DNA from: Sphingobacteriia bacterium
Lineage (GTDB): Bacteria > Bacteroidota > Bacteroidia > B-17B0 > Aurantibacillaceae
Length of the DNA: 64,000 nucleotides
Assembly (NCBI GenBank): GCA_009927275.1
Contig: RFNG01000086.1
Span: 337-64,336, forward strand
Reading direction: 5' to 3'
The translations under genes and the position numbers were made by a program. Below, in pieces: positions 2 to 10,108 of the stretch. Position 1 is the stretch's first letter, and every line of letters starts with the position of its first letter. The notes beneath the pieces are model-generated. The model was not told the DNA's origin and ran no database searches. It worked only from the letters and a program-made list of their open reading frames with translations.

Positions 2-478
2 AGTCAAGTATCTTATGGTAATATTAGTGGTGTTTTAGACGTTACCACATTACCTTTGGAAGCGCTTGAACTGCATCAAGATAAAGCAAATCCCTCTTCT
101 GCTGGTGCTACGGCATTTGACGATTATAATGCCAACTTTGCCACCTCCCCTGTAATAACTGGGGCCAATAATATTTATACCAGTGCAGCACCCTATACAC
201 GTCCTGTTGCAGCTGAAAAATACATTGCCGGACATAATGCCGCAACCGACTTTGTTGCCGGTGGAAGCTATTTATTATTAAATCCTACCGTTGGTGCCGG
301 TAGTAATTATTGGTACAGTATTGACTACCGTTTGGTACCAGGCTTACCCGCTATATTTCCAAATGCCCGTACCAATGCCGGTGTGGCGCGTGATATTGCA
401 ACCGTTTCAGGTGCTGGTACGTATGCACGGCCGGGCGTATACACCATGAATGTGAAATATGTTTTAGTTGAAAATTAA
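2..478 (+). CDS. 5'-truncated pilin/fimbrial-subunit-like protein, paralog of the next gene
   Basis: The frame is open from base 2 (SQVSYGNISGVLDVTTLPLEALELH...), so the true start lies upstream of the window. It is Ala/Gly/Thr/Asn-rich, ends in an alternating beta-strand PGVYTMNVKYVLVEN, and shares motifs with ORF 564..1214. Confidence 0.6.
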   Translation, partial: SQVSYGNISGVLDVTTLPLEALELHQDKANPSSAGATAFDDYNANFATSPVITGANNIYTSAAPYTRPVAAEKYIAGHNAATDFVAGGSYLLLNPTVGAGSNYWYSIDYRLVPGLPAIFPNARTNAGVARDIATVSGAGTYARPGVYTMNVKYVLVEN

Positions 479-520
479 ATAAAGCTTTTAAAAATCTACT
501 GTTAACAAGTTATTTACATT

Positions 521-548
521 AAGGCGCCGCTTAAGCGGCGCCTTTTTT
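521..548 (+). terminator. Rho-independent terminator/attenuator hairpin
   Basis: Perfect inverted repeat AAGGCGCCGC-TTAA-GCGGCGCCTT (521-544) followed directly by a T tract, 42 nt after the stop of ORF1. Confidence 0.85.
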
Positions 549-563
549 ATTTTGTAGGGTTAG

Positions 564-1214
564 ATGCCCTCATTTAAAACCATTTTTACTCTTATATTTT
601 GGCTGATTTTACAATGCGGAAAATCGCAATGCCCGGGCCCCTCGGGTGGAGCATCTAATTGCGATCCGCTACTTTCTGAAATCCGAATGAATACTTCCAA
701 TATGGTGGACTTTACGTTTGATTCGTTTTCAAAAATAAATGGAGGTATGGAAATTTTTGGTTCAACCCAAATTAAAATTATAACCGTTAATAATCCGGCA
801 TTAACCTGCAAGTGGAATTTGATTATGTATGTGTTTAATAGCGGTATACCTACCCCAGCCAATGCTTTTGATAATTTGGCACAATACGGAAACGGAAGCG
901 GTCAGTTGCCTACCCTAAATTACATACAGGTGCGTGTAACCAATATATGTGGCACTCCTGTTAATAATGGCGTTTGGCAAACCTTTGCTGCCTCCAGCGG
1001 ATCTGCCTTGGATATAATAAATAATATTGTTTTAACTGCAGCCGGAAATTGCAATACCTCAAAAGTAAATACAGCAGGTTCGTATTTAACCAATCCGGGG
1101 GAATATACATTTATAATAGATTATAAAATTTTACCGGCGGCCGGGATACCGGCTTTTCCGCTAACACCGGGTAGATACAGCGCCAATATTAAATTTTGTT
1201 TAAGCGAAATGTAA
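564..1214 (+). CDS. Secreted pilin-like subunit (putative minor/tip subunit), 216 aa
   Basis: Signal peptide MPSFKTIFTLIFWLILQCGKS-Q, several Cys, C-terminus PGRYSANIKFCLSEM. Shares YGNxSG, GSYL, IDY(R/K)xxP and GxPAxxP with ORF1. Confidence 0.6.
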   Translation: MPSFKTIFTLIFWLILQCGKSQCPGPSGGASNCDPLLSEIRMNTSNMVDFTFDSFSKINGGMEIFGSTQIKIITVNNPALTCKWNLIMYVFNSGIPTPANAFDNLAQYGNGSGQLPTLNYIQVRVTNICGTPVNNGVWQTFAASSGSALDIINNIVLTAAGNCNTSKVNTAGSYLTNPGEYTFIIDYKILPAAGIPAFPLTPGRYSANIKFCLSEM

Positions 1215-4204
1215 TGAAAATGCAAAAAACATGTTTTTGCTTAATTTTATTTTTTTGTTGCGCCGTTTCAATTAGTAAATCTGCAAGTAGTGCTGCACCC
1301 CCCGATTCATTACAGTGCAATTATCTTTATAAAGATGTGATACTTAAAGATCTTAATTTTGTTTCCAATGTTTTACGAATTGTAAACCTGTCGTCAAAAT
1401 CGGTTTCAATTACCCTTGAACATGCCATACCGGATTTTTGGAAAATTATTGGCACGCAGCAAGCCACCATTGGCTTAAATGCCAAAGACTCTATTTTTAT
1501 ACCGGTTCGATTGAGTCCGATACAAAAAAACATTGTTAGTGGATTTCGTTATAAAATTATTAGCATTGTTAAACTACCAGATGAATTTCGTCAAATACAA
1601 TGTGTTTTTTTAATTGAAAAACCAAGGGTGCACCGATTTTCAATGGATTTGCTATCACCAAAAACCGTTTACTTAAAAAACAATGAACGTAAAATTACAT
1701 CTAATCTGATTTTAGAAAATAAAAGTGATTTTTCAGAAAGTTATTTATTTAGTATTGATTATACAGGCAGAAACATTCGCCTAATCGATTCCAGTCAGCG
1801 TTTTAAAAAACAGGCCTATATAGGACTTATTAAACCCTATACAGATACCATCTCAGATATAATTAGCGATTTAAGTCCTGATAAAAGCATACCCGTTCGA
1901 ATAGATCCCAATTCTTACATAAATGGCGAATCGTATTATTATCCCATTCGCAATTCTGTATTTTATAAAGCCCGGCTATTAAACGGTTTTAAAACCGATA
2001 CCAGCAAGTCTAATCTGCAGCAAACTTTATTGTATACTAAACATCAAAATATTATTAAATTATATAACCGCTTTTACGTAAATAACAATTTTCAAAATGA
2101 AATCCCTTCATCCTTACGTGTTAATTTTTTTAATTTGGTAAGCAAACAACCCATAATGAATGTATTGCTGTTTGGCCAATCGCGAACAGAAAAACTTGGG
2201 TATTTAAGCTATTACCTTCAAAGCTATTTAAATACCTATAGTTTTAACAGCAATACATTAAGATCCTTTTTTGGTCAAATTAATTTTATAAATACTAAAT
2301 ACACCGTTTCGTTTGGCAGTAATCCGATTTTAAGCTTTTCAAATGGTAATAATGCAATGATAAACTCCAATGGTTTTGGCTTGGGATATAAACGCAGTTT
2401 TAAAAACAATCAGGAATTGGGCTTTGTTTTTAGTCGACCTCTGTATGCCGGCACCAGTAATTTAAATTTAAATTATGGTATAGGCTATCAAAAAACATTT
2501 CAACGCGCTTCAATGGGGCTTGTTTTTCAACAGCTTTTTCCAAATGCAACTAAAAATTATAAACTTATCAGACCTAATTTAACCTTGAATTTAAATGCAA
2601 AAAACATACTGATGCTGTATTCTAACTTAGTATTTGATACTAAATTGATAAATACCAATTACGGAATGAATTATTTTAAAAATTGGAAAAACAAAGGTTT
2701 TTCTAATGTCGCTTTTCAATACAATCAATCAACCAATTATAGTTTTTTAAGTCCACAAGTTTATAGCTATTCCAATGATAATTTAAATATATCTGTAAGA
2801 AATCAGTTTCTTGTTAAACAACAAACATTCCAGGTTTTTAACACATTTATACAAAATTCATTTTTAAACGTTCAAACACAAACACTCAATTACAACTCAA
2901 CTCTTAGTAATAATATTTTAGTAGGTCGGTATAAAATATTAAATAAAGCATTAATTCCAGGACTTTACATTGATCATAATTCCATATTTAATATTAATAC
3001 ACTGAGTTACGGGAGTATTTTAAACTTTAATAATTGGTTTTATAATAAATCTTTAATATCGAGTTTAAATTTAAGATCCGGTTACAATCATTTTTTAAAT
3101 AATAAATTGCCCAATTTTTTTACTGCACAGGTAAATGCTTTTGTATCTTATAAGCTATGGCGTATAAACGGCCGCTATTATTATGGCCCAATGAATTTTA
3201 CTAATTTGGTAAATAAGTTTAACGGTAAACTACCTTATGAGCAATTTGTATTTTCAAACATTACACATCAAATTCAATTTAAGAACAAACAATTTGTTTT
3301 AGAAAATAATGTGTTTTATAATTTAATTTTTTCAATTAACCGACACGTAACGGGCTTTTTTAGTCAGTTTTACTATTTTACCACCAGTGGATGGGTATTT
3401 AATGTAAACGTAAATTATAATTTAAATACCTATCAAAAGTATGTATTTAATTATAATCCCAATTCAAATTATAATAATATTGCAAGCGATGATCGCGTGT
3501 TTTCGAATACGTTTCAATTGGGTTTTGGAATTCGAAAAGATTTTAACATTTCATTACCCGCAAATCTCATTGTAAAACCTACACATAATCTAAAATTTAA
3601 AACATTTATTGATCTTAATTCAAATCGAAAATATGAACCGGGTGAACCGGGTATTGAAAATGCTGTAATCACTTTGGGTGATTACCAGTTTCAAACTGAT
3701 ACGGCAGGTGAGGCAAGTATTTACAGATTACAAGATGGCTGGTATAAATACTCGGTTATACTTTTACAAGACATCGGATCTTGGTTTCCAATAACCTACG
3801 ACAGTTTATTTCACGATGGTACACCCTGTTTTTATATACCATTTACACGAGGTGGTGAAATTTTAGGTAAACTGGAAGTAAAACGCGATGCATTGAGTGA
3901 AAAACTGATTGAAAAAATTGATGTTTCGGGAATTCGCATTCAGTTAACCGACAGCTCCGGAAAAACACTTACTACCTTAACAGATGTAAAAGGTAATTTT
4001 AAATTTAATGTACCTTTTGGTGATTATAATATGTACATCAATGATAATAGTTTTTCAAACGATTTTATGTTAAGTGAAAATCATGTAACATTTAATTTAA
4101 ATACCGACTATCCGGCATTTTACCAAAGCTTTTTTATTTTAGAACGGCTTCGCAAAACCAAAAAGAAAAAGTTTGATGCTAATGGAAATTTAATTATTGA
4201 ATAA
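1214..4204 (+). CDS. Large secreted/outer-membrane usher-like protein (~996 aa)
   Basis: Start reassigned to ATG 1214, which overlaps the upstream stop as TAATG. Signal peptide, N-terminal Ig-like segments (VSNVLRIVNLSS...DSIFIPVRLSP), a long central region of alternating aromatic/Asn strands ending TFQLGFGIRKDF, then an SdrD-B-like motif FIDLNSNRKYEPGEPGIEN and a carboxypeptidase-regulatory-like segment TDVKGNFKFNVPFGDY. Confidence 0.55.
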   Translation: MKMQKTCFCLILFFCCAVSISKSASSAAPPDSLQCNYLYKDVILKDLNFVSNVLRIVNLSSKSVSITLEHAIPDFWKIIGTQQATIGLNAKDSIFIPVRLSPIQKNIVSGFRYKIISIVKLPDEFRQIQCVFLIEKPRVHRFSMDLLSPKTVYLKNNERKITSNLILENKSDFSESYLFSIDYTGRNIRLIDSSQRFKKQAYIGLIKPYTDTISDIISDLSPDKSIPVRIDPNSYINGESYYYPIRNSVFYKARLLNGFKTDTSKSNLQQTLLYTKHQNIIKLYNRFYVNNNFQNEIPSSLRVNFFNLVSKQPIMNVLLFGQSRTEKLGYLSYYLQSYLNTYSFNSNTLRSFFGQINFINTKYTVSFGSNPILSFSNGNNAMINSNGFGLGYKRSFKNNQELGFVFSRPLYAGTSNLNLNYGIGYQKTFQRASMGLVFQQLFPNATKNYKLIRPNLTLNLNAKNILMLYSNLVFDTKLINTNYGMNYFKNWKNKGFSNVAFQYNQSTNYSFLSPQVYSYSNDNLNISVRNQFLVKQQTFQVFNTFIQNSFLNVQTQTLNYNSTLSNNILVGRYKILNKALIPGLYIDHNSIFNINTLSYGSILNFNNWFYNKSLISSLNLRSGYNHFLNNKLPNFFTAQVNAFVSYKLWRINGRYYYGPMNFTNLVNKFNGKLPYEQFVFSNITHQIQFKNKQFVLENNVFYNLIFSINRHVTGFFSQFYYFTTSGWVFNVNVNYNLNTYQKYVFNYNPNSNYNNIASDDRVFSNTFQLGFGIRKDFNISLPANLIVKPTHNLKFKTFIDLNSNRKYEPGEPGIENAVITLGDYQFQTDTAGEASIYRLQDGWYKYSVILLQDIGSWFPITYDSLFHDGTPCFYIPFTRGGEILGKLEVKRDALSEKLIEKIDVSGIRIQLTDSSGKTLTTLTDVKGNFKFNVPFGDYNMYINDNSFSNDFMLSENHVTFNLNTDYPAFYQSFFILERLRKTKKKKFDANGNLIIE

Positions 4205-5754
4205 TGTTTGTAATCCAAAATACTATACTTACAGGCGTGATGATAATGGTTGTTCAAATTGAACTTGCACAATCGCTGTCCCCTTATACATTTTTTAAAG
4301 ATGGTATTGGAATAAACCTAATAACTCAAGGTAATGGCGAACGTTGTAAACCTGCCCATGAACTTACATTGCGGTATTCAATGGGTTTTCATCCTGACAC
4401 CTTATTAGATCAATCAAATTCAAATTTTACATTTATTTTGGGTGAACGTGAGGGCTTAAAAGGATGGGACCTGGCATTACAGCATTTGCATATTGGTGAC
4501 AGTGCCGTTTGCATAATACCCGATTCATTGGCATACAGAGGACAAAAAATTGGCCGTTACCAAACACAAAGGCCACTTATTTTAAATGTAAAAATAATTG
4601 GTCAGCGGCCCGTTTATTTTGACATCCCAAAACATAATAGGGATAGCATCCGTGTTGGTGCAGGTATTAAAAAAATTATTTTAAAGCCGGGTAAAAATAC
4701 TGTACAGGCCTATCATTATGTAGATTTTACCATTACCGGATATATAAAAACAACGGAAGGTTACCGGCGACGATTTATACAGGGATCTAACACCCAATTA
4801 GGTTTAAATGTACAACTGGGCACAAAAAATTTTATTGAGGCCCTGGATAAAACCCTTTTAAGTATGAAAACCGGTGAAAAGGCTCATGTTATAATTGAAC
4901 CTTATGCGGGATTACAAAATGATAAAAAACAAGCTGGAATTCCGCCCAATAGCAGACTTTTTTTTGACATTGAATTACATTCTACTATTAATCCGTTTAA
5001 ACACTTGGCTTTAAAAGATACCATTACTAAAATACCTGGATTTTATTGTGTAGTTAATGGCGAAAAACGGAAAAATATTTTGCGTCAGGTTTTGCCTGAA
5101 GATGAGCAAATCATATCCACGCAAGGCTATTATTTTAAATTGGATTCAAATGGAAACGGAATCATTACTTCTAATTCGTACATTACAGGACGTCCGTTTA
5201 TTTTTAGAACCCGTTCATCTCTTTTTCACGCTGCATTTATTAATGGCTTTAAGCACTTGCAATTTGGTGATGAGGTTTTATTAATTTACGATTCGGTACC
5301 AGCGGCCAATGGTTTTGAAAAACAAGGTATGTATTTAGAAAGCGTTCGTTTTACACCTTTTCCGTTTTACAAAGAAGATACCCTTTTGCGACAAAAACAA
5401 AACCGCGTTACATATCAGGATGTTGTTCGCACTGATAATCCATTAAGCGTAGAAGCGCAAGACACCATATCCATACGTTTTACGGGTTATTATAAAACGG
5501 ATAACGGAAATCGTCGTATTTTTGATTCGTCAATGGATTTACAACGCGGTTTTACATTTGTGTTAAATGCTACATCCATTATACCGGGTTTAAAAGATGG
5601 TATTATAGGCATGCGCAGCGGTTCAAAACGTATAATTTATGTACCCTATTCGCTCGCCTATGGTACTGAAGGATTGCCTAAGCGAGGTATACCACCAAAA
5701 ACCAATTTAATTTTTGATGTAGAAGTTTTACATATTTCCAAACACAAGCTTTAA
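4204..5754 (+). CDS. Multi-domain FKBP-type peptidyl-prolyl cis-trans isomerase (about 4 FKBP repeats, one degenerate)
   Basis: Repeated FKBP signatures: LKGWDLALQHLHIGDSAVCIIPDSLAY; IEALDKTLLSMKTGEKAHVIIEP...GIPPNSRLFFDIEL; AFINGFKHLQFGDEVLLIY; IIPGLKDGIIGMRSGSKRIIYVPYSLAYG...GIPPKTNLIFDVEVL. TAATG overlap with the upstream gene. Confidence 0.85.
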   Translation: MFVIQNTILTGVMIMVVQIELAQSLSPYTFFKDGIGINLITQGNGERCKPAHELTLRYSMGFHPDTLLDQSNSNFTFILGEREGLKGWDLALQHLHIGDSAVCIIPDSLAYRGQKIGRYQTQRPLILNVKIIGQRPVYFDIPKHNRDSIRVGAGIKKIILKPGKNTVQAYHYVDFTITGYIKTTEGYRRRFIQGSNTQLGLNVQLGTKNFIEALDKTLLSMKTGEKAHVIIEPYAGLQNDKKQAGIPPNSRLFFDIELHSTINPFKHLALKDTITKIPGFYCVVNGEKRKNILRQVLPEDEQIISTQGYYFKLDSNGNGIITSNSYITGRPFIFRTRSSLFHAAFINGFKHLQFGDEVLLIYDSVPAANGFEKQGMYLESVRFTPFPFYKEDTLLRQKQNRVTYQDVVRTDNPLSVEAQDTISIRFTGYYKTDNGNRRIFDSSMDLQRGFTFVLNATSIIPGLKDGIIGMRSGSKRIIYVPYSLAYGTEGLPKRGIPPKTNLIFDVEVLHISKHKL

Positions 5755-5757
5755 ACT

Positions 5758-6642
5758 ATGAAACCAATTATACTTTTACTATCATTTATTTTATTACAAA
5801 TTGTTCATGCACAGGTTTTAAATACCGACAGCGGAACAGTGCCTAAACCCAATGCAATGGATAATACCGAACGGTCGGCCGGTGTTGCGGTGTCGCCCTC
5901 AACGCTTCGATTTAACGCCAAGCCCGGAACACTGCAAATTAAAACATTTAAAATAACCAACGACAGTAAACGGAATTATCAGTTCAATTTAATATTACAG
6001 GATTATGCCGTTGACGAACAAACAGGCAAAGAAGTATATATGCCTAAAAGTTACCGCTATGCCTTGTCTAAATACTTAAGTGTATCTCCAAATTTTATTG
6101 AATTAAAACCGGGTGAGTTTAAAAATATTGCTGTAACCATAGATATTCCTCCTGTTGATACTAATAATATTTCCATGTGGACTATGCTTATTGTTGATCA
6201 GGTAGTAAATAAAAATAAAAAATTAGAATTAAATAAAGCCAATGCCAATGCCCTCGCAATGGGAATTAATGTGGGCATGGGATTTGGAATTCGGATGTAT
6301 CAAAATCCACCAAACGTTAAAATAACCGATGTGGAAATATTAAAATTAGCATATGCAGCTCCCAAAACCAAAAAAAATAAAGGGTATTTACTCATTGATT
6401 TACAAAATATGGGAGATGGCATTTCCTACTGTTTAAATTATATTGAAATGACCCATTTTGCAACCGGTAAACAAACTAAATACAAAGTAAATCAATTAAG
6501 TATTATGCCAAAAAATAAAAAACAGGTAAAGTTTGAATTGCCCGCAGAATTAAGCTCAGGTAAATATTCAGCAGTTGTGGTTATTGATTTTGGTGATAAA
6601 GACAATTTACAAACCGCCGAAATAGAATTTAAAATAGATTAA
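5758..6642 (+). CDS. Periplasmic two-Ig-domain PapD/DUF916-like chaperone
   Basis: Signal peptide ending VHA-Q. Domain 1: GVAVSPSTLRF...FKITNDS...YLSVSPNFIELKPGEFKNIAVTIDIP. Domain 2: LQNMGD...IMPKNKKQVKFELPAELSSGKYSAVVVIDFG. This is the layout of pilus chaperone-like proteins. Confidence 0.65.
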   Translation: MKPIILLLSFILLQIVHAQVLNTDSGTVPKPNAMDNTERSAGVAVSPSTLRFNAKPGTLQIKTFKITNDSKRNYQFNLILQDYAVDEQTGKEVYMPKSYRYALSKYLSVSPNFIELKPGEFKNIAVTIDIPPVDTNNISMWTMLIVDQVVNKNKKLELNKANANALAMGINVGMGFGIRMYQNPPNVKITDVEILKLAYAAPKTKKNKGYLLIDLQNMGDGISYCLNYIEMTHFATGKQTKYKVNQLSIMPKNKKQVKFELPAELSSGKYSAVVVIDFGDKDNLQTAEIEFKID

Positions 6643-6643
6643 T

Positions 6644-7852
6644 ATGAAACCAGCTTACTTGGTTGACACGCTGCGAACACCCATTGGATCTTTGGGTGGA
6701 TCACTCGCATCTGTTAGGGCAGATGATTTGGCGGCCCATGTGTTACGCGAACTCGTAGCCCGAAATTCAGGCCTTGATCCACACGGTATTGAAGATGTAA
6801 TTTTAGGCTGTGCCAATCAGGCTGGTGAAGATAATCGGAATGTTGCGCGAATGGCGCTGTTACTTGCCGGATTACCTCAAAGCGTAGCGGGACAAACCGT
6901 TAATAGACTATGTGCAAGCGGATTAAGTGCGGCCATGGATGCTGCTCGCAGCATTATGTGTGGCGATTCTGATCTGCTTATTGCAGGAGGTGTAGAACAA
7001 ATGACGCGTGCACCATGGGTTTTAAGTAAATCGGAAACTGCCTTCGGACGTCAACAGGAATTGTATGATTCCAGCTTTGGCTGGCGATTTATAAATCCTA
7101 AAATGCACGAACGGTTTGGTACCGATGCCATGGGGGCCACCGCTGAACATTTAGCAGAACAATTTAATATCAGCAGAGAAGATCAGGATGCATTTGCTTT
7201 ACTGAGTCAGCAAAAAGCTTCCCTTGCCCAGGCATCCGGACGATTGGCTCGTGAAATTACGGGAGTTTTAATTCCACAAAAAAAAGGTGAACCGCGTTGT
7301 TTTGAAGCGGATGAGTTTATTAAACCTCAAACACATAAAGATGCATTATCTAAATTAAAGCCGGTTTTTAAAAAAAATGGTACCGTTACTGCAGGTAATT
7401 CCAGTGGGTTAAACGATGGTGCAGCTGCGCTTTTACTCGCTTCAGAAGCTGGCATTAAAACACATCAATTAAAACCTTTAGCCCGAATTGTAGCTTCTGG
7501 TGTATGTGGTGTTGAACCTCGCATTATGGGTATTGGCCCGGTTGAAGCAAGTTATAAGGCATTAAAACGTGCCGGATTAACAATACATGACATGGACCTT
7601 ATAGAACTTAACGAAGCTTTTGCTGCACAAAGTTTGGCATGCTTACGATCATGGAAATTAGATGACAATGACCCTCGCGTTAATGTAAATGGCGGTGCTA
7701 TTGCACTGGGACACCCCTTGGGTATGAGTGGTGCACGAATATTAGGTTCGGCAGCACTTGAACTCCAATATCGCAATTTACAGTATGCATTAGTAACCAT
7801 GTGTATTGGCGTTGGTCAGGGATTTGCAGTAATTATTGAACGCGCCTCATGA
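6644..7852 (+). CDS. pcaF: Acetyl-CoA C-acyltransferase (3-oxoadipyl-CoA thiolase, PcaF/PaaJ type)
   Basis: Thiolase motifs TVNRLCASG, NEAFAAQ, GHPLG, MCIGVGQG; RNVARMALLLAGLP. Confidence 0.85.
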   Translation: MKPAYLVDTLRTPIGSLGGSLASVRADDLAAHVLRELVARNSGLDPHGIEDVILGCANQAGEDNRNVARMALLLAGLPQSVAGQTVNRLCASGLSAAMDAARSIMCGDSDLLIAGGVEQMTRAPWVLSKSETAFGRQQELYDSSFGWRFINPKMHERFGTDAMGATAEHLAEQFNISREDQDAFALLSQQKASLAQASGRLAREITGVLIPQKKGEPRCFEADEFIKPQTHKDALSKLKPVFKKNGTVTAGNSSGLNDGAAALLLASEAGIKTHQLKPLARIVASGVCGVEPRIMGIGPVEASYKALKRAGLTIHDMDLIELNEAFAAQSLACLRSWKLDDNDPRVNVNGGAIALGHPLGMSGARILGSAALELQYRNLQYALVTMCIGVGQGFAVIIERAS

Positions 7853-8508
7853 ATATACACCGTCTGGATTTAAATAACAGTATTCTATGCGAATACATGA
7901 TTGGAATTCGTGATATTACATTACAAAAAAACAGGACTTTATTTAAATCGCATTTAAAATTCATTGGACGCTTGATGGCTTATGAAATCAGTAAAACGCT
8001 ATCATTTACCGCTAAGTCTGTTCAAACACCTTTGGACACCTACTCGGGTTTTGAATTGCAACAGCAACCCGTTTTAGCTTGTATTTTGCGTGCTGCATTA
8101 CCTTTTTATGATGGCTTTTCTGAAGTGTTTTCACAAGCTGATACTTTATTTATTGCAGCAAGCCGAAACTATAACAATGAAACAACGTTTGAAATCGCAC
8201 AACATTATTTTGCCGGTCCAAAACTGGGTTCTGCTCCATTAATTTTATGTGATACCATGTTGGCCAGCGGTTTATCTATTCACGACTGTATAAATTTAAT
8301 ATTACAGCACGGCCAAACCGGCCCAATTCATGTAGCATGCGTATTAGCCTCAGAACCCGGTATTACATTTTTAAAAACAGCATTCGCGTCATCCTCCATT
8401 ACTTTATGGTGTGGTGCAGTTGATCAAAACTTAAATGCGCACGCCTATATTGTTCCAGGCTTGGGAGATGCCGGTGATCTTGCATTTGGAGAAAAATATA
8501 CAATTTGA
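7849..8508 (+). CDS. upp: Uracil phosphoribosyltransferase
   Basis: ILRAALP, PRPP-binding LILCDTMLASG, C-terminal AYIVPGLGDAGDLAFG. Confidence 0.9.
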   Translation: MNIHRLDLNNSILCEYMIGIRDITLQKNRTLFKSHLKFIGRLMAYEISKTLSFTAKSVQTPLDTYSGFELQQQPVLACILRAALPFYDGFSEVFSQADTLFIAASRNYNNETTFEIAQHYFAGPKLGSAPLILCDTMLASGLSIHDCINLILQHGQTGPIHVACVLASEPGITFLKTAFASSSITLWCGAVDQNLNAHAYIVPGLGDAGDLAFGEKYTI

Positions 8509-8510
8509 AC

Positions 8511-10108
8511 ATGCGGTATTCTTGGGATACATACCCCCTACACCCTGCCGTTGATGCATTTATTAAACATGATCCGGTTACCAATGAATTAATATCATGT
8601 CCCACACATATTGATGCAATACCCGAATTTATTAATACCCATGGTTTTACAGTAGAAAAACGGCAGGTGCTATATACTGTTTAAAAAATCAAACACAGGC
8701 TTTACACTTAGATATACCTCAGGTTAATGAAAATATTGAACGTATCAAAGCACCCACTACGTATACAGTAACCTGTGGCCATCAACTGGTGCTTTGGAGC
8801 GGACCACTTTTTGTATGGACTAAAATTGCACATTGTATAGCCATTTGCAAGCGTTTACAAATTCAGTTTCCTCAATACCAATTTGTGCCGGTATTTTGGC
8901 TGGCCGCTGAGGATCATGACACAGCTGAAATACAAACCGTTCATGTATTTGGAAAACGCTACCACTGGCCTGTAACAGGTAATGGACCGGTTGGCGAATT
9001 AATTCCAAATTCAGAATTAAATAACTGCCGAATAAATTTGCAAAACGCAATTCAAGGAATGCCCTTTGCCGATGCGTTTAATGCAGCCTTAAACGATTTT
9101 CAAAATTCAAAACATTTATCACAAGCCGTACAAGGTCTTTTATATCGGTTTTTTGGATCAGAAGGTTTAGTATGTATTGATGCCAACCGTGCAGAACTTA
9201 AACAACTCTTTAAAAATCAACTAAAGGCCGATATTTTACATCAAGAAACCATAAAAGCCAGTTTACAAACCATGCAGTTATGGCAAAGCAAGCAATGGAA
9301 ACCGGTTATTGGATTTCGACCTTGCAATATATTTTACATTTTTGAAAATACACGTAAACGCATTGACAAAACTCCTACGGGATTTGAATTGTCTGATAAA
9401 AGTAAATTCTGGACAACTTCTGAAATGGAACTTGAAATAGATTCTAATCCAGAACGTTTTAGCCCTAATGCACTTTTACGACCGTTGTACCAGCAATACA
9501 TTTTACCAAATATTATGTATGTTGCCGGACCTCAGGAATTGGCGTATTGGTTGCAATTAAAATCTGTTTTTAAACATTACAACATTTCCTTTCCGTTGCT
9601 TAGTTTAAGATACATGCAAATACCGCTTTCAGCAAAAACCATACGCTATTTACATAAATTAAATTTACAACCTATTGATACATTTAAAACGGAACAAGCG
9701 CTTTTAACTGCGGTTACATGTAATGACCCTTTAACATTACATGCAGTAGAATGGAATGCAACTTTTAAATCACGCATTGAAGATTTGGGACAACGTATAT
9801 ACCAAGTGGATGCAAGTTTGAAGCCTGCATTTGAGGCTGAAACGCATAAATATCTTAAAGGTATTGAACGATTAATTTCAAAATCAAATGCTAAAATTAA
9901 AAGCAATGCTACACAATTTCAACAGCAAATTAACAACATTAAAAATGCCGTTTTTCCCCAGCATCAAATTATAGAACGGACTGAACATCCTGCACAATGG
10001 TATTTACTAGAAGGACCTGATTTTATTAAACAACTTATTATGCGTTGCGAACAATTAGAGGGTGAAATCGTTTTTTATGCAACTGCACGGCATAACACAG
10101 AATCATGA
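8511..10108 (+). CDS. bshC: Bacillithiol biosynthesis cysteine-adding enzyme BshC (frameshift near 8681)
   Basis: ATG 8511 frame (MRYSWDTYPLHP...EKRQVLYTV) stops at 8682. Adding one T joins it to the frame reading ...YTVTCGHQLVLWSGP...FWLAAEDHD...FSPNALLRPLYQQYILPNIMYVAGPQELAYW, typical BshC motifs. Confidence 0.85.

Follow-up and report, generated by a model that had tools for sequence, protein, structure and literature searches.

Several described fibers and pilus systems resemble the locus analyzed here. TLP-1a and TLP-1b (PDB 9IKJ and 9IKK) were solved by cryo-electron microscopy from filtered pond water (CryoSeek, Tsinghua Lotus Pond; Wang et al., PNAS 2024; PMC11494351). TLP-1 forms 8-nm helical tubules with a 15-Å lumen, a helical rise of ~11.5 Å and a twist of ~75 degrees, and its donor-strand exchange (DSE) was established experimentally, the N-terminal strand of protomer n+4 completing the Ig-like fold of protomer n (PMC11494351). 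Its authors reported no matching metagenomic sequence or mass-spectrometry peptide and a best predicted-structure match of <40% identity; they named no matching gene, source species or assembly factor and did not discuss neighboring genes (PMC11494351). No later paper tying TLP-1 to an operon was found in a literature search. Here, a five-gene locus was analyzed at the start of a 64,000-nucleotide stretch of DNA (the window) from a member of the Bacteroidota (Sphingobacteriia bacterium, assembly GCA_009927275.1). The locus is probably an operon for a TLP-1-type DSE pilus with a dedicated chaperone-usher-like assembly pathway.

To our knowledge, only type V pili (FimA/Mfa1) have been characterized in Bacteroidota. 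Pilins of type V are made as lipoprotein precursors that proteolysis activates, and we know of no chaperone or usher for these pili. The classical usher of the chaperone-usher pili forms a barrel of 24 strands, in which a plug domain separates strand 6 from strand 7. Furthermore, the DUF916/DUF3324 protein ElrE was shown experimentally to be a donor-strand complementation (DSC) chaperone that builds WxL pili (bioRxiv 10.64898/2026.10.17.759780). The same preprint calls the DUF916/WxL system confined to Bacillota, after a search that required PF06030, PF11797 and PF13731 together (bioRxiv 10.64898/2026.10.17.759780). The Bacteroidota module described below fell outside that survey because it cannot satisfy this combination.

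The window comprises bases 337–64336 of the 67.6-kb contig C100, in an assembly of 2.29 Mb with 37.7% GC and an estimated completeness of 99.3%. Five co-oriented and tightly coupled open reading frames (ORFs) for exported proteins, noticed in a first-pass annotation of the sequence, were present on the + strand at 2–478, 564–1214, 1214–4204, 4204–5754 and 5758–6642. The TAATG stop/start overlaps at 1214 (GAAATGTAATGAAA) and 4204 (GAATAATGTTT) and the 3-nucleotide (nt) gap at 5755–5757 read exactly as described there, the last junction being TAA-ACT-ATG (5752–5760). The ORF of the large protein starts with the ATG at 1214, with an alternative TTG at 1196. The first ORF is open at its 5′ end in the window; in the assembly, from which the upstream contig sequence was retrieved, the gene is complete (C100:59–814, 251 amino acids (aa) including the signal peptide) and starts 278 nt before the window. 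A hydrophobicity scan of all five proteins found one N-terminal hydrophobic segment in each and no further membrane-spanning window. Each gene is single-copy in this genome. Four of the five proteins matched no Pfam or NCBIfam family at the gathering threshold. The features of the locus are the following:

2–478, + strand: sub1, major pilin (TLP-1-type donor-strand subunit), from Foldseek matches 9ikk_A/9ikj_A and the family profile against the PDB
521–554, + strand: terminator-/attenuator-like hairpin between sub1 and sub2, a stem-loop with a T-tract, recurrent across loci
564–1214, + strand: sub2, minor pilin paralog of 216 aa without a donor strand, from paralogy to sub1 and 37 family members
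1214–4204, + strand: usher-like, predicted outer-membrane protein of 996 aa, from the structural model and Foldseek matches to FimD/PapC
4204–5754, + strand: exported multi-FKBP prolyl isomerase of 516 aa, clade-specific accessory, with three FKBP_C modules and one degenerate module
5758–6642, + strand: soluble two-domain Ig-like protein of 294 aa, proposed periplasmic donor-strand chaperone, with a DUF916/PapD-like-clan N-domain

Sub1 and TLP-1 have in common the N-terminal donor strand, the C-terminal strand PGVYT[ML]NVK[YF]V and a cleaved signal peptide. TLP-1 is known as a structure only; the sub1 gene stands in a genome beside sub2 and the chaperone-like and usher-like genes. The chaperone-usher pili, both classical and archaic (Fim, Pap, Csu, Caf1), share with the module an operon layout in which a terminator-like hairpin comes after the major-subunit gene and the other genes encode a minor subunit, an outer-membrane protein of ~1000 aa and a two-domain Ig-like periplasmic protein; sub2 resembles their tip adhesins in lacking a donor strand, and the large protein resembles FimD and PapC at the level of fold. 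Nevertheless, no sequence homology to the usher, chaperone or pilin of these systems was detectable. In its model the large protein has ~26 strands and no obvious plug insert, and two PapD/ASH-like Ig domains replace the N-terminal domain of the usher. The DUF916-like type of the chaperone, the n+4 exchange of a TLP-1-type fiber (four chains per tubule) and the host phylum set the module apart as well.

The WxL/Elr pilus of Enterococcus faecalis and other Bacillota is like the module in its two paralogous subunits of ~230 aa, in its DSE by an N-terminal strand, which for the module follows by homology to TLP-1, and probably in its DUF916-type chaperone domain. However, the WxL/Elr chaperone carries DUF3324 and a membrane anchor, whereas the protein of the module is soluble and lacks both. 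The WxL/Elr pilins belong to Pfam WxL, those of the module not detectably so, and the WxL/Elr fiber is anchored to the cell wall by sortase and has no outer-membrane component. Type V pili share with the module its phylum and a strand-exchange polymer of Ig-like subunits, but the module differs from them: its pilins have no lipobox and no FimA/Mfa Pfam match, their donor strand is N-terminal, and chaperone-like and usher-like genes of its own accompany them.

Fiber subunits and their relation to TLP-1

The AlphaFold2 (AF2) model of mature sub1, built from an 83-sequence alignment, reached a predicted local distance difference test score (pLDDT) of 85.8 and a predicted TM-score (pTM) of 0.83. 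When this model was compared with the PDB by Foldseek, the matches were 9ikk_A (TLP-1b) and 9ikj_A (TLP-1a), at E 3e-23, TM-scores of 0.87 and 0.85 and 44% identity. The chaperone-usher pilins came next after TLP-1, and nearly all of the other leading fold matches were donor-strand fiber subunits (CfaB, PapA, TasA, FimA/F/G, Caf1, SafA and CanA). The family profile of sub1 also found TLP-1 among the PDB chains by hmmsearch, at E 5e-69 and 9e-68 and over residues 2–236, and none of 46 sub1 homologs, nor sub2, had any Pfam family match. These results established sub1 as closely homologous to the protomer of TLP-1a/b, and its homology to this solved fibril predicts polymerization by DSE through the N-terminal extension. 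The first-pass annotation had made its proposal depend on the small proteins having incomplete folds; the homology of sub1 to TLP-1, whose Ig-like fold needs a strand of another protomer, supports this for the major subunit.

Within the set of loci collected here, the protein closest to TLP-1a/b was sub1 of locus L007 (53% identity), followed by those of L003, L005, L004 and the window (44–47%), values that may be underestimates because the TLP-1 sequences were read from density. These nearest relatives of TLP-1 belong to the clade that carries the FKBP gene.

The signal peptide of sub1 in the window is MKKFILVAAVLFVGIGKA, followed by Gln; in the family it ends in A/S-Q, and no lipobox Cys is present at the cleavage site. 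The mature N-terminus, QLVDEQNVTITMDLQP, was aligned by the family profile with LISEQNVTVTMDLQP, from residue 2 of the TLP-1 chains, and constitutes the putative donor strand of sub1. Mature residues 1–16 were among the most conserved of the protein (majority-residue frequency of 0.87 vs 0.69 overall), and residues 1–17 were structureless in the AF2 monomer model (pLDDT 50–69). The same unstructured N-terminus was noted in AF2 models by the TLP-1 authors (PMC11494351). Furthermore, hydrophobic residues occupy mature positions 8, 10, 12 and 14 of sub1, and in the donor strand of ElrD, of ~15 residues, positions 8, 10, 12 and 14 are buried (bioRxiv 10.64898/2026.10.17.759780), a parallel that was read by eye from the sequence.

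The first two ORFs encode paralogs, as had been proposed for the two small proteins, with 26% identity (E 2e-10). Sub2 aligned with sub1 only from the strand after the donor strand onward, and its mature N-terminus is QCPGPSGGASNC, a two-Cys loop. In 37 of the 37 sub2 homologs read, a Cys segment (QC-x7-10-C or Q[LI]HCG) replaces the donor strand. Sub2 is thus likely a tip or cap subunit and, because it would accept a strand but could not donate one, it would fit the distal end of a fiber that grows from its base.

Variants of the subunits were also observed. In a Bacteroidales locus (L063:10973–12602) two tandem sub1 paralogs stand ahead of sub2, and this may give a mixed or an alternative major subunit. 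About a dozen members of the subunit superfamily (P0159, P0167, P0169, P0174 and others) are 420–457 aa long with two subunit-like stretches, and could be tandem-domain pilins or tip adhesins.

The chaperone-like and usher-like proteins

The 294-aa protein was compared through a family of 40 members. PF06030 (DUF916) was matched in the N-domain of 38 of them, with a best E of 4.3e-7, and the source annotation of some relatives already names DUF916. Other families of the PapD-like clan were also matched, namely Cep192_D6 in 34 members, MSP in 30 and PF14874 (ASH, PapD-like) in three. No match to PF11797 (DUF3324) was found in the family, and the protein of the window has no hydrophobic segment beyond its signal peptide. 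When the family was aligned with E. faecalis ElrE by hhalign, the two ran in register over the whole DUF916 domain (128 columns, probability 32%). The sole match in PDB sequence searches, run with the single sequence and with the profile, was a weak one to a synaptotagmin C2 domain, on the C-domain (E 5e-3). Based on domain kinship, topology and linkage, the 294-aa protein is proposed to be a periplasmic donor-strand chaperone. Its description as a two-domain PapD/DUF916-like protein is supported at the level of the DUF916/PapD-like clan but not of the PapD family, the protein being nearer to DUF916.

The kinship to ElrE raises another explanation, namely that the module belongs by descent to the WxL/Elr pilus family and moved into a diderm, with highly diverged WxL subunits, an anchor-less ElrE ortholog and an added outer-membrane pore. 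The DUF916 matches and the in-register alignment fit this explanation, as do the similar size of the subunits (~230 aa mature), a W-x-L motif (SWDLYA / KWNLIM) with a C-terminal Y-x-x-x-[IV]-x-[YF]-x-L strand, and the hydrophobic residues at mature positions 8/10/12/14, which match the report on ElrD. However, the motifs compared are short and were picked out by eye, and PF13731 was matched in 0 of the 46 sub1 homologs, even at E≤1. No PF11797, membrane anchor, sortase or LPxTG partner was found either. For a direct comparison of the subunits, the ElrD sequence was taken from the preprint methods (bioRxiv 10.64898/2026.10.17.759780) and 24 homologs were collected; hhalign of the subunit families against this alignment gave probabilities of 47.6% over 30 columns and of 2.8%, which are not significant, and the subunits were not retained as diverged WxL domains. 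Descent of the whole module from the WxL/Elr family is unlikely on this evidence, and ancestry shared with the Gram-positive WxL system is supported for the chaperone domain only.

The large protein was modeled by AF2 with 48 homologs (pLDDT 79.4, pTM 0.56), and the model was all-beta. It begins with a signal peptide and two Ig-like sandwich domains (~33–255), continues with ~26–28 long beta-strands over residues ~273–780, and ends in two prealbumin-like/Ig-like sandwich domains (~790–977). The modeled secondary structure fits the earlier description of a putative barrel of ~1000 aa with Ig-like domains at both ends. The C-terminal domains resemble CarboxypepD_reg, SdrD_B or SpaA weakly, with CarboxypepD_reg/SdrD_B matches in 43 and 42 of the 48 homologs. 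A conserved GxGxRK[DE]F motif, with a nearly invariant RK-x-F, lies at the end of the last long strand and, judging from the sequence, may be a barrel-closing signal.

In the Foldseek comparison with the PDB, the top four matches of the large protein were FimD in pilus complexes (E 2.7e-12, 2.1e-11, 6.5e-11 and 8.2e-11, over ~780–830 columns), and PapC came next (E 7.5e-9 and 7.8e-8). Isolated FimD/PapC pores were matched at E ~1e-5 with TM-scores of 0.40–0.45, and TonB-dependent receptors at E ~2e-5. The fold matches also included ciliary proteins of ASH/PapD-like type and 9I1Y, a WxLIP structure from E. faecium, presumably via the N-terminal Ig pair. No usher or other useful match was found among PDB sequences with the single sequence or the profile. 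The large protein is therefore described here as usher-like by fold and not as a member of the usher family. The pilus proposal was to fall if the large protein had no transmembrane barrel; the ~26 long strands flanked by Ig-like domains and the top matches to FimD and PapC suggest that it has one. Separately, the first Ig domain was aligned with the chaperone family by hhalign at a probability of 50%, which is suggestive only. The N-terminal Ig pair (residues 33–255, window 1214–1980) may represent a docking module of chaperone-like type within the usher.

Gene linkage, operon design and distribution

A total of 68 loci were fetched from species-representative genomes using the alignment of the 294-aa family alone, and their ORFs were scanned with hidden Markov models (HMMs) built from the families of the window. 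Genes for sub1, sub2 and the usher-like protein adjoin the chaperone gene in ~58 of these 68 loci, almost every one of those that no contig end interrupts. The gene order varied among all 72 loci: chaperone-sub1-sub2-large protein in 43, sub1-sub2-large protein-chaperone in six, sub1-sub2-large protein-FKBP-chaperone in three (the clade of the window) and sub1-chaperone-sub2-large protein in two. The linkage of the four gene families is far beyond chance. The first-pass annotation had expected the five genes to co-occur in other genomes; the four core families do, linked in shuffled orders across dozens of genomes. Sub1 of the window was 58% identical to that of a distant soil contig (L001); the corresponding values for the chaperone, sub2 and the large protein were 43%, 40% and 25%. 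Only eight relatives of the large protein came out of a word-indexed search, and the 294-aa protein had >150.

The hairpin at 521–554 consists of the stem AAGGCGCCGC-TTAA-GCGGCGCCTT, of 10 bp with eight G-C pairs, followed by a T-tract. An equivalent hairpin was found after sub1 in 46 of 62 loci, vs 0.6 expected from shuffles, with unrelated stem sequences, and in only 2 of 54 chaperone-sub1 spacers. The spacer between sub2 and the usher-like gene has a median of 3 nt. A hairpin after the major pilin gene is a classic design for excess of the major pilin over the assembly genes. A sigma-70 promoter scan did no better than shuffles. In a same-species contig, genes for a TonB-dependent receptor and a cobalamin adenosyltransferase lie upstream of the first ORF and are followed by a 217-nt AT-rich spacer; since these upstream genes are unrelated, the cluster begins at sub1.

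The FKBP protein has three clear FKBP_C domains and one FKBP-sized segment (the third, residues 266–389) unrecognized by Pfam, the segments being of ~125 aa. Of the four FKBP units read in the first pass, three are therefore confirmed as FKBP_C domains and the one at 266–389 is not recognized. The FKBP gene adjoins the module in ~8 loci only, all of one clade (the window, L003–L007, L013 and L044). The isomerase is a clade-specific accessory and not a core part, so that a pathway with its own prolyl isomerase, as first proposed, would apply to the clade of the window and not to the module at large. An invariant proline-rich motif of sub1, R-x-x-P-G-L-P-A-x-F-P, is a plausible, if speculative, substrate for it. 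The protein is exported and has no lipobox. An assignment as BamJ was rejected, given an NCBIfam score of 97.5 against a cut-off of 100 bits and the missing lipobox, whereas BamJ is a lipoprotein. BamJ is a surface lipoprotein of the β-barrel assembly machinery (BAM) complex of Bacteroidota (PMC12578637).

The carriers of the module were nearly all metagenome-assembled genomes of Bacteroidota (Chitinophagales, Flavobacteriales, Bacteroidales and Sphingobacteriales), mostly of uncultured freshwater, soil and marine lineages. Among cultured bacteria it was found in Flavicella marina 2A-7 and, as more divergent copies, in two Saccharicrinis strains. It is rare and patchy, being present in two of 401 evenly drawn genomes of the phylum and in four of 37 in the genus of the window, and the subunit superfamily amounts to 350 representatives among 1.84 billion protein clusters. 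Additionally, a Cloacimonadota contig and an unclassified contig (L070:384–5541 and L072:8682–15241) each carry a divergent chaperone and a large usher-like gene, with small ORFs of ~180–230 aa, two in the case of the Cloacimonadota contig, between or beside them that were not recognized by the subunit HMMs. The machinery may serve other subunit families outside Bacteroidota.

Several features of the neighborhood were also recorded. In several independent assemblies of the species and of close relatives, the contig ends inside sub1 or shortly before it (C100:1–58, L004:1–55, L075:1–40 and L078:1–53), which may reflect strain-level diversity of a surface-exposed major pilin or a variable upstream element. 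On the other side, 1 nt separates the stop of the chaperone gene from a thiolase ATG at 6644, and L004 and L075 likewise have the set of thiolase, uracil phosphoribosyltransferase (UPRTase) and bshC genes downstream. Transcription of the pilus operon probably continues into housekeeping genes, and does so in this lineage only. In the window, bshC (8478–10108) seems to carry a frameshift, where frames are open at 8478–8684 and 8636–10108 and the listed ORF has only 439 aa, and an intact BshC of 532 aa directly follows the UPRTase gene in the same-species contig L075; the frameshift could be an assembly error or a pseudogene. A C39-peptidase ATP-binding cassette (ABC) transporter lies near the module in 11 loci, with varying side and orientation, and in L001:13256–16776 it is followed by a 416-aa membrane protein.

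Assembly model and competing explanations

In the model proposed here, all five proteins would be exported by Sec, and signal peptidase I would cleave ahead of Gln. In the periplasm, the soluble DUF916-like protein would cap the open groove of new subunits by DSC, as do ElrE and PapD/CsuC, and would deliver them, as chaperone-subunit complexes, to the Ig-like domains on the periplasmic side of the ~1000-aa barrel protein. Sub2, with no strand to donate, would enter first and come to lie at the distal tip. Copies of sub1 would then join from the base, the N-terminal strand of each displacing the chaperone, and the chain would pass to the outside by way of the barrel. There, DSE chains would pack laterally into the 8-nm TLP-1 tubule, with protomer n+4 as the donor. 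The terminator-like hairpin after sub1 would provide a surplus of major-subunit mRNA and, in the clade of the window, the FKBP isomerase probably aids the folding of the proline-rich subunits (PGLPAxFP) or of the barrel. Chaperone capping, export through the barrel, the placement of sub2 at the tip and the role of the FKBP protein are thus inferred, and a role of the fiber in adhesion or matrix building would be a guess.

Several observations weigh against an assembly pathway of this kind. No match to Pfam Usher PF00577, or to PapC_N or PapC_C, was obtained in the large protein of the window or in its 48 homologs at E≤1, and no match to PapD families PF00345 or PF02753 in the 40 members of the chaperone family. 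The chaperone of the window itself scores 20.8 bits with PF06030, below the cut-off of 27.3. Alignment by hhalign gave probabilities of 0.2% for the large-protein family against E. coli FimD and of 0.4% for the chaperone family against E. coli FimC, comparisons of low power, each having a single-sequence target. The TM-scores with ushers were low (0.26–0.45), though this is expected for multi-domain models, and the predicted string of strands contains no plug-sized insert of ~80 aa, its longest non-strand gaps being of ~20 residues. Furthermore, n+4 exchange implies four separate DSE chains per tubule, which a single-chain usher does not obviously build, and TasA fibers and archaeal cannulae are DSC fibers without a chaperone or usher.

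Some of these points would be accounted for if the fiber were real and there were no chaperone-usher handover. The barrel would then be a passive pore or anchor (or export would take another route), the subunits would polymerize spontaneously outside the cell like TasA and cannulae, and the DUF916-like protein would act in structure, in wall binding or as an adaptor and not as a fold-completing chaperone. The original description of DUF916 is of a domain that binds peptidoglycan and interacts with WxL (Pfam WxLIP_PGBD), TasA (8aur) and CanA from the chaperone-free DSC fibers are among the fold matches of sub1, and the missing sequence homology to ushers and PapD and the lack of a visible plug-sized insert point the same way. 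Nevertheless, the four genes remain strictly linked through shuffled gene orders, it is ushers bound to pili that head the structural matches of the large protein, and ElrE, a DUF916 protein, has now been shown to be a DSC chaperone. The 294-aa protein is, moreover, soluble and periplasmic in type, without the host-binding module PF11797. A fiber assembled with no handover is, in our judgment, quite improbable. It is barely credible that the neighbors are unrelated to the fiber, with the large protein a nutrient-uptake or OmpA-like barrel in a cluster conserved for other reasons: TonB-dependent receptors are among its fold matches (E ~2e-5) and CarboxypepD_reg is common at the N-terminus of Bacteroidota TonB receptors, but Pfam gave no Plug or TonB_dep_Rec match, the prealbumin-like domains are C-terminal, ushers surpass these receptors by seven orders of magnitude in E-value, the gene is translationally coupled to sub2, and co-occurrence is almost universal.

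The explanation preferred here remains a TLP-1-type DSE pilus with a chaperone-usher-like pathway of its own. The distinct pathway proposed in the first-pass annotation is supported, the likeness being at the level of fold or superfamily and not of family. Its further claim, that no system of this form had been characterized, needs to be divided: the genes, the host and the machinery had not been identified before, but the fiber had already been solved as TLP-1. The class of mechanism is known and the fiber has been imaged; it is the gene set, the host phylum, the soluble DUF916-type chaperone and the sequence-novel usher-like protein that are undescribed, as far as the searched literature shows.

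A bolder form of this explanation, which we hold only tentatively, is that the module is a third, previously unrecognized line of machinery for donor-strand pili, a link between the two already known, with a soluble DUF916 chaperone, sister to the membrane-anchored WxL ones, an usher of an origin independent of, or earlier than, the known ushers, and a four-chain tubule. If so, the usher would be oligomeric or cooperative, and chaperone-guided DSE would have a common origin that predates the monoderm/diderm split of these lineages.

This locus ties the orphan TLP-1 fibrils to a gene family and to a phylum, Bacteroidota, and offers a candidate machine for their assembly. The logic of chaperone plus usher would be present in Bacteroidota outside the classical Pfam families, and DUF916-type chaperones would extend to diderms, one month after a preprint confined DUF916/WxL pili to Bacillota. 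The export of a four-chain DSE tubule is raised as a mechanistic puzzle, and the cultured carriers, Flavicella marina 2A-7 and Saccharicrinis spp., make bench tests possible.

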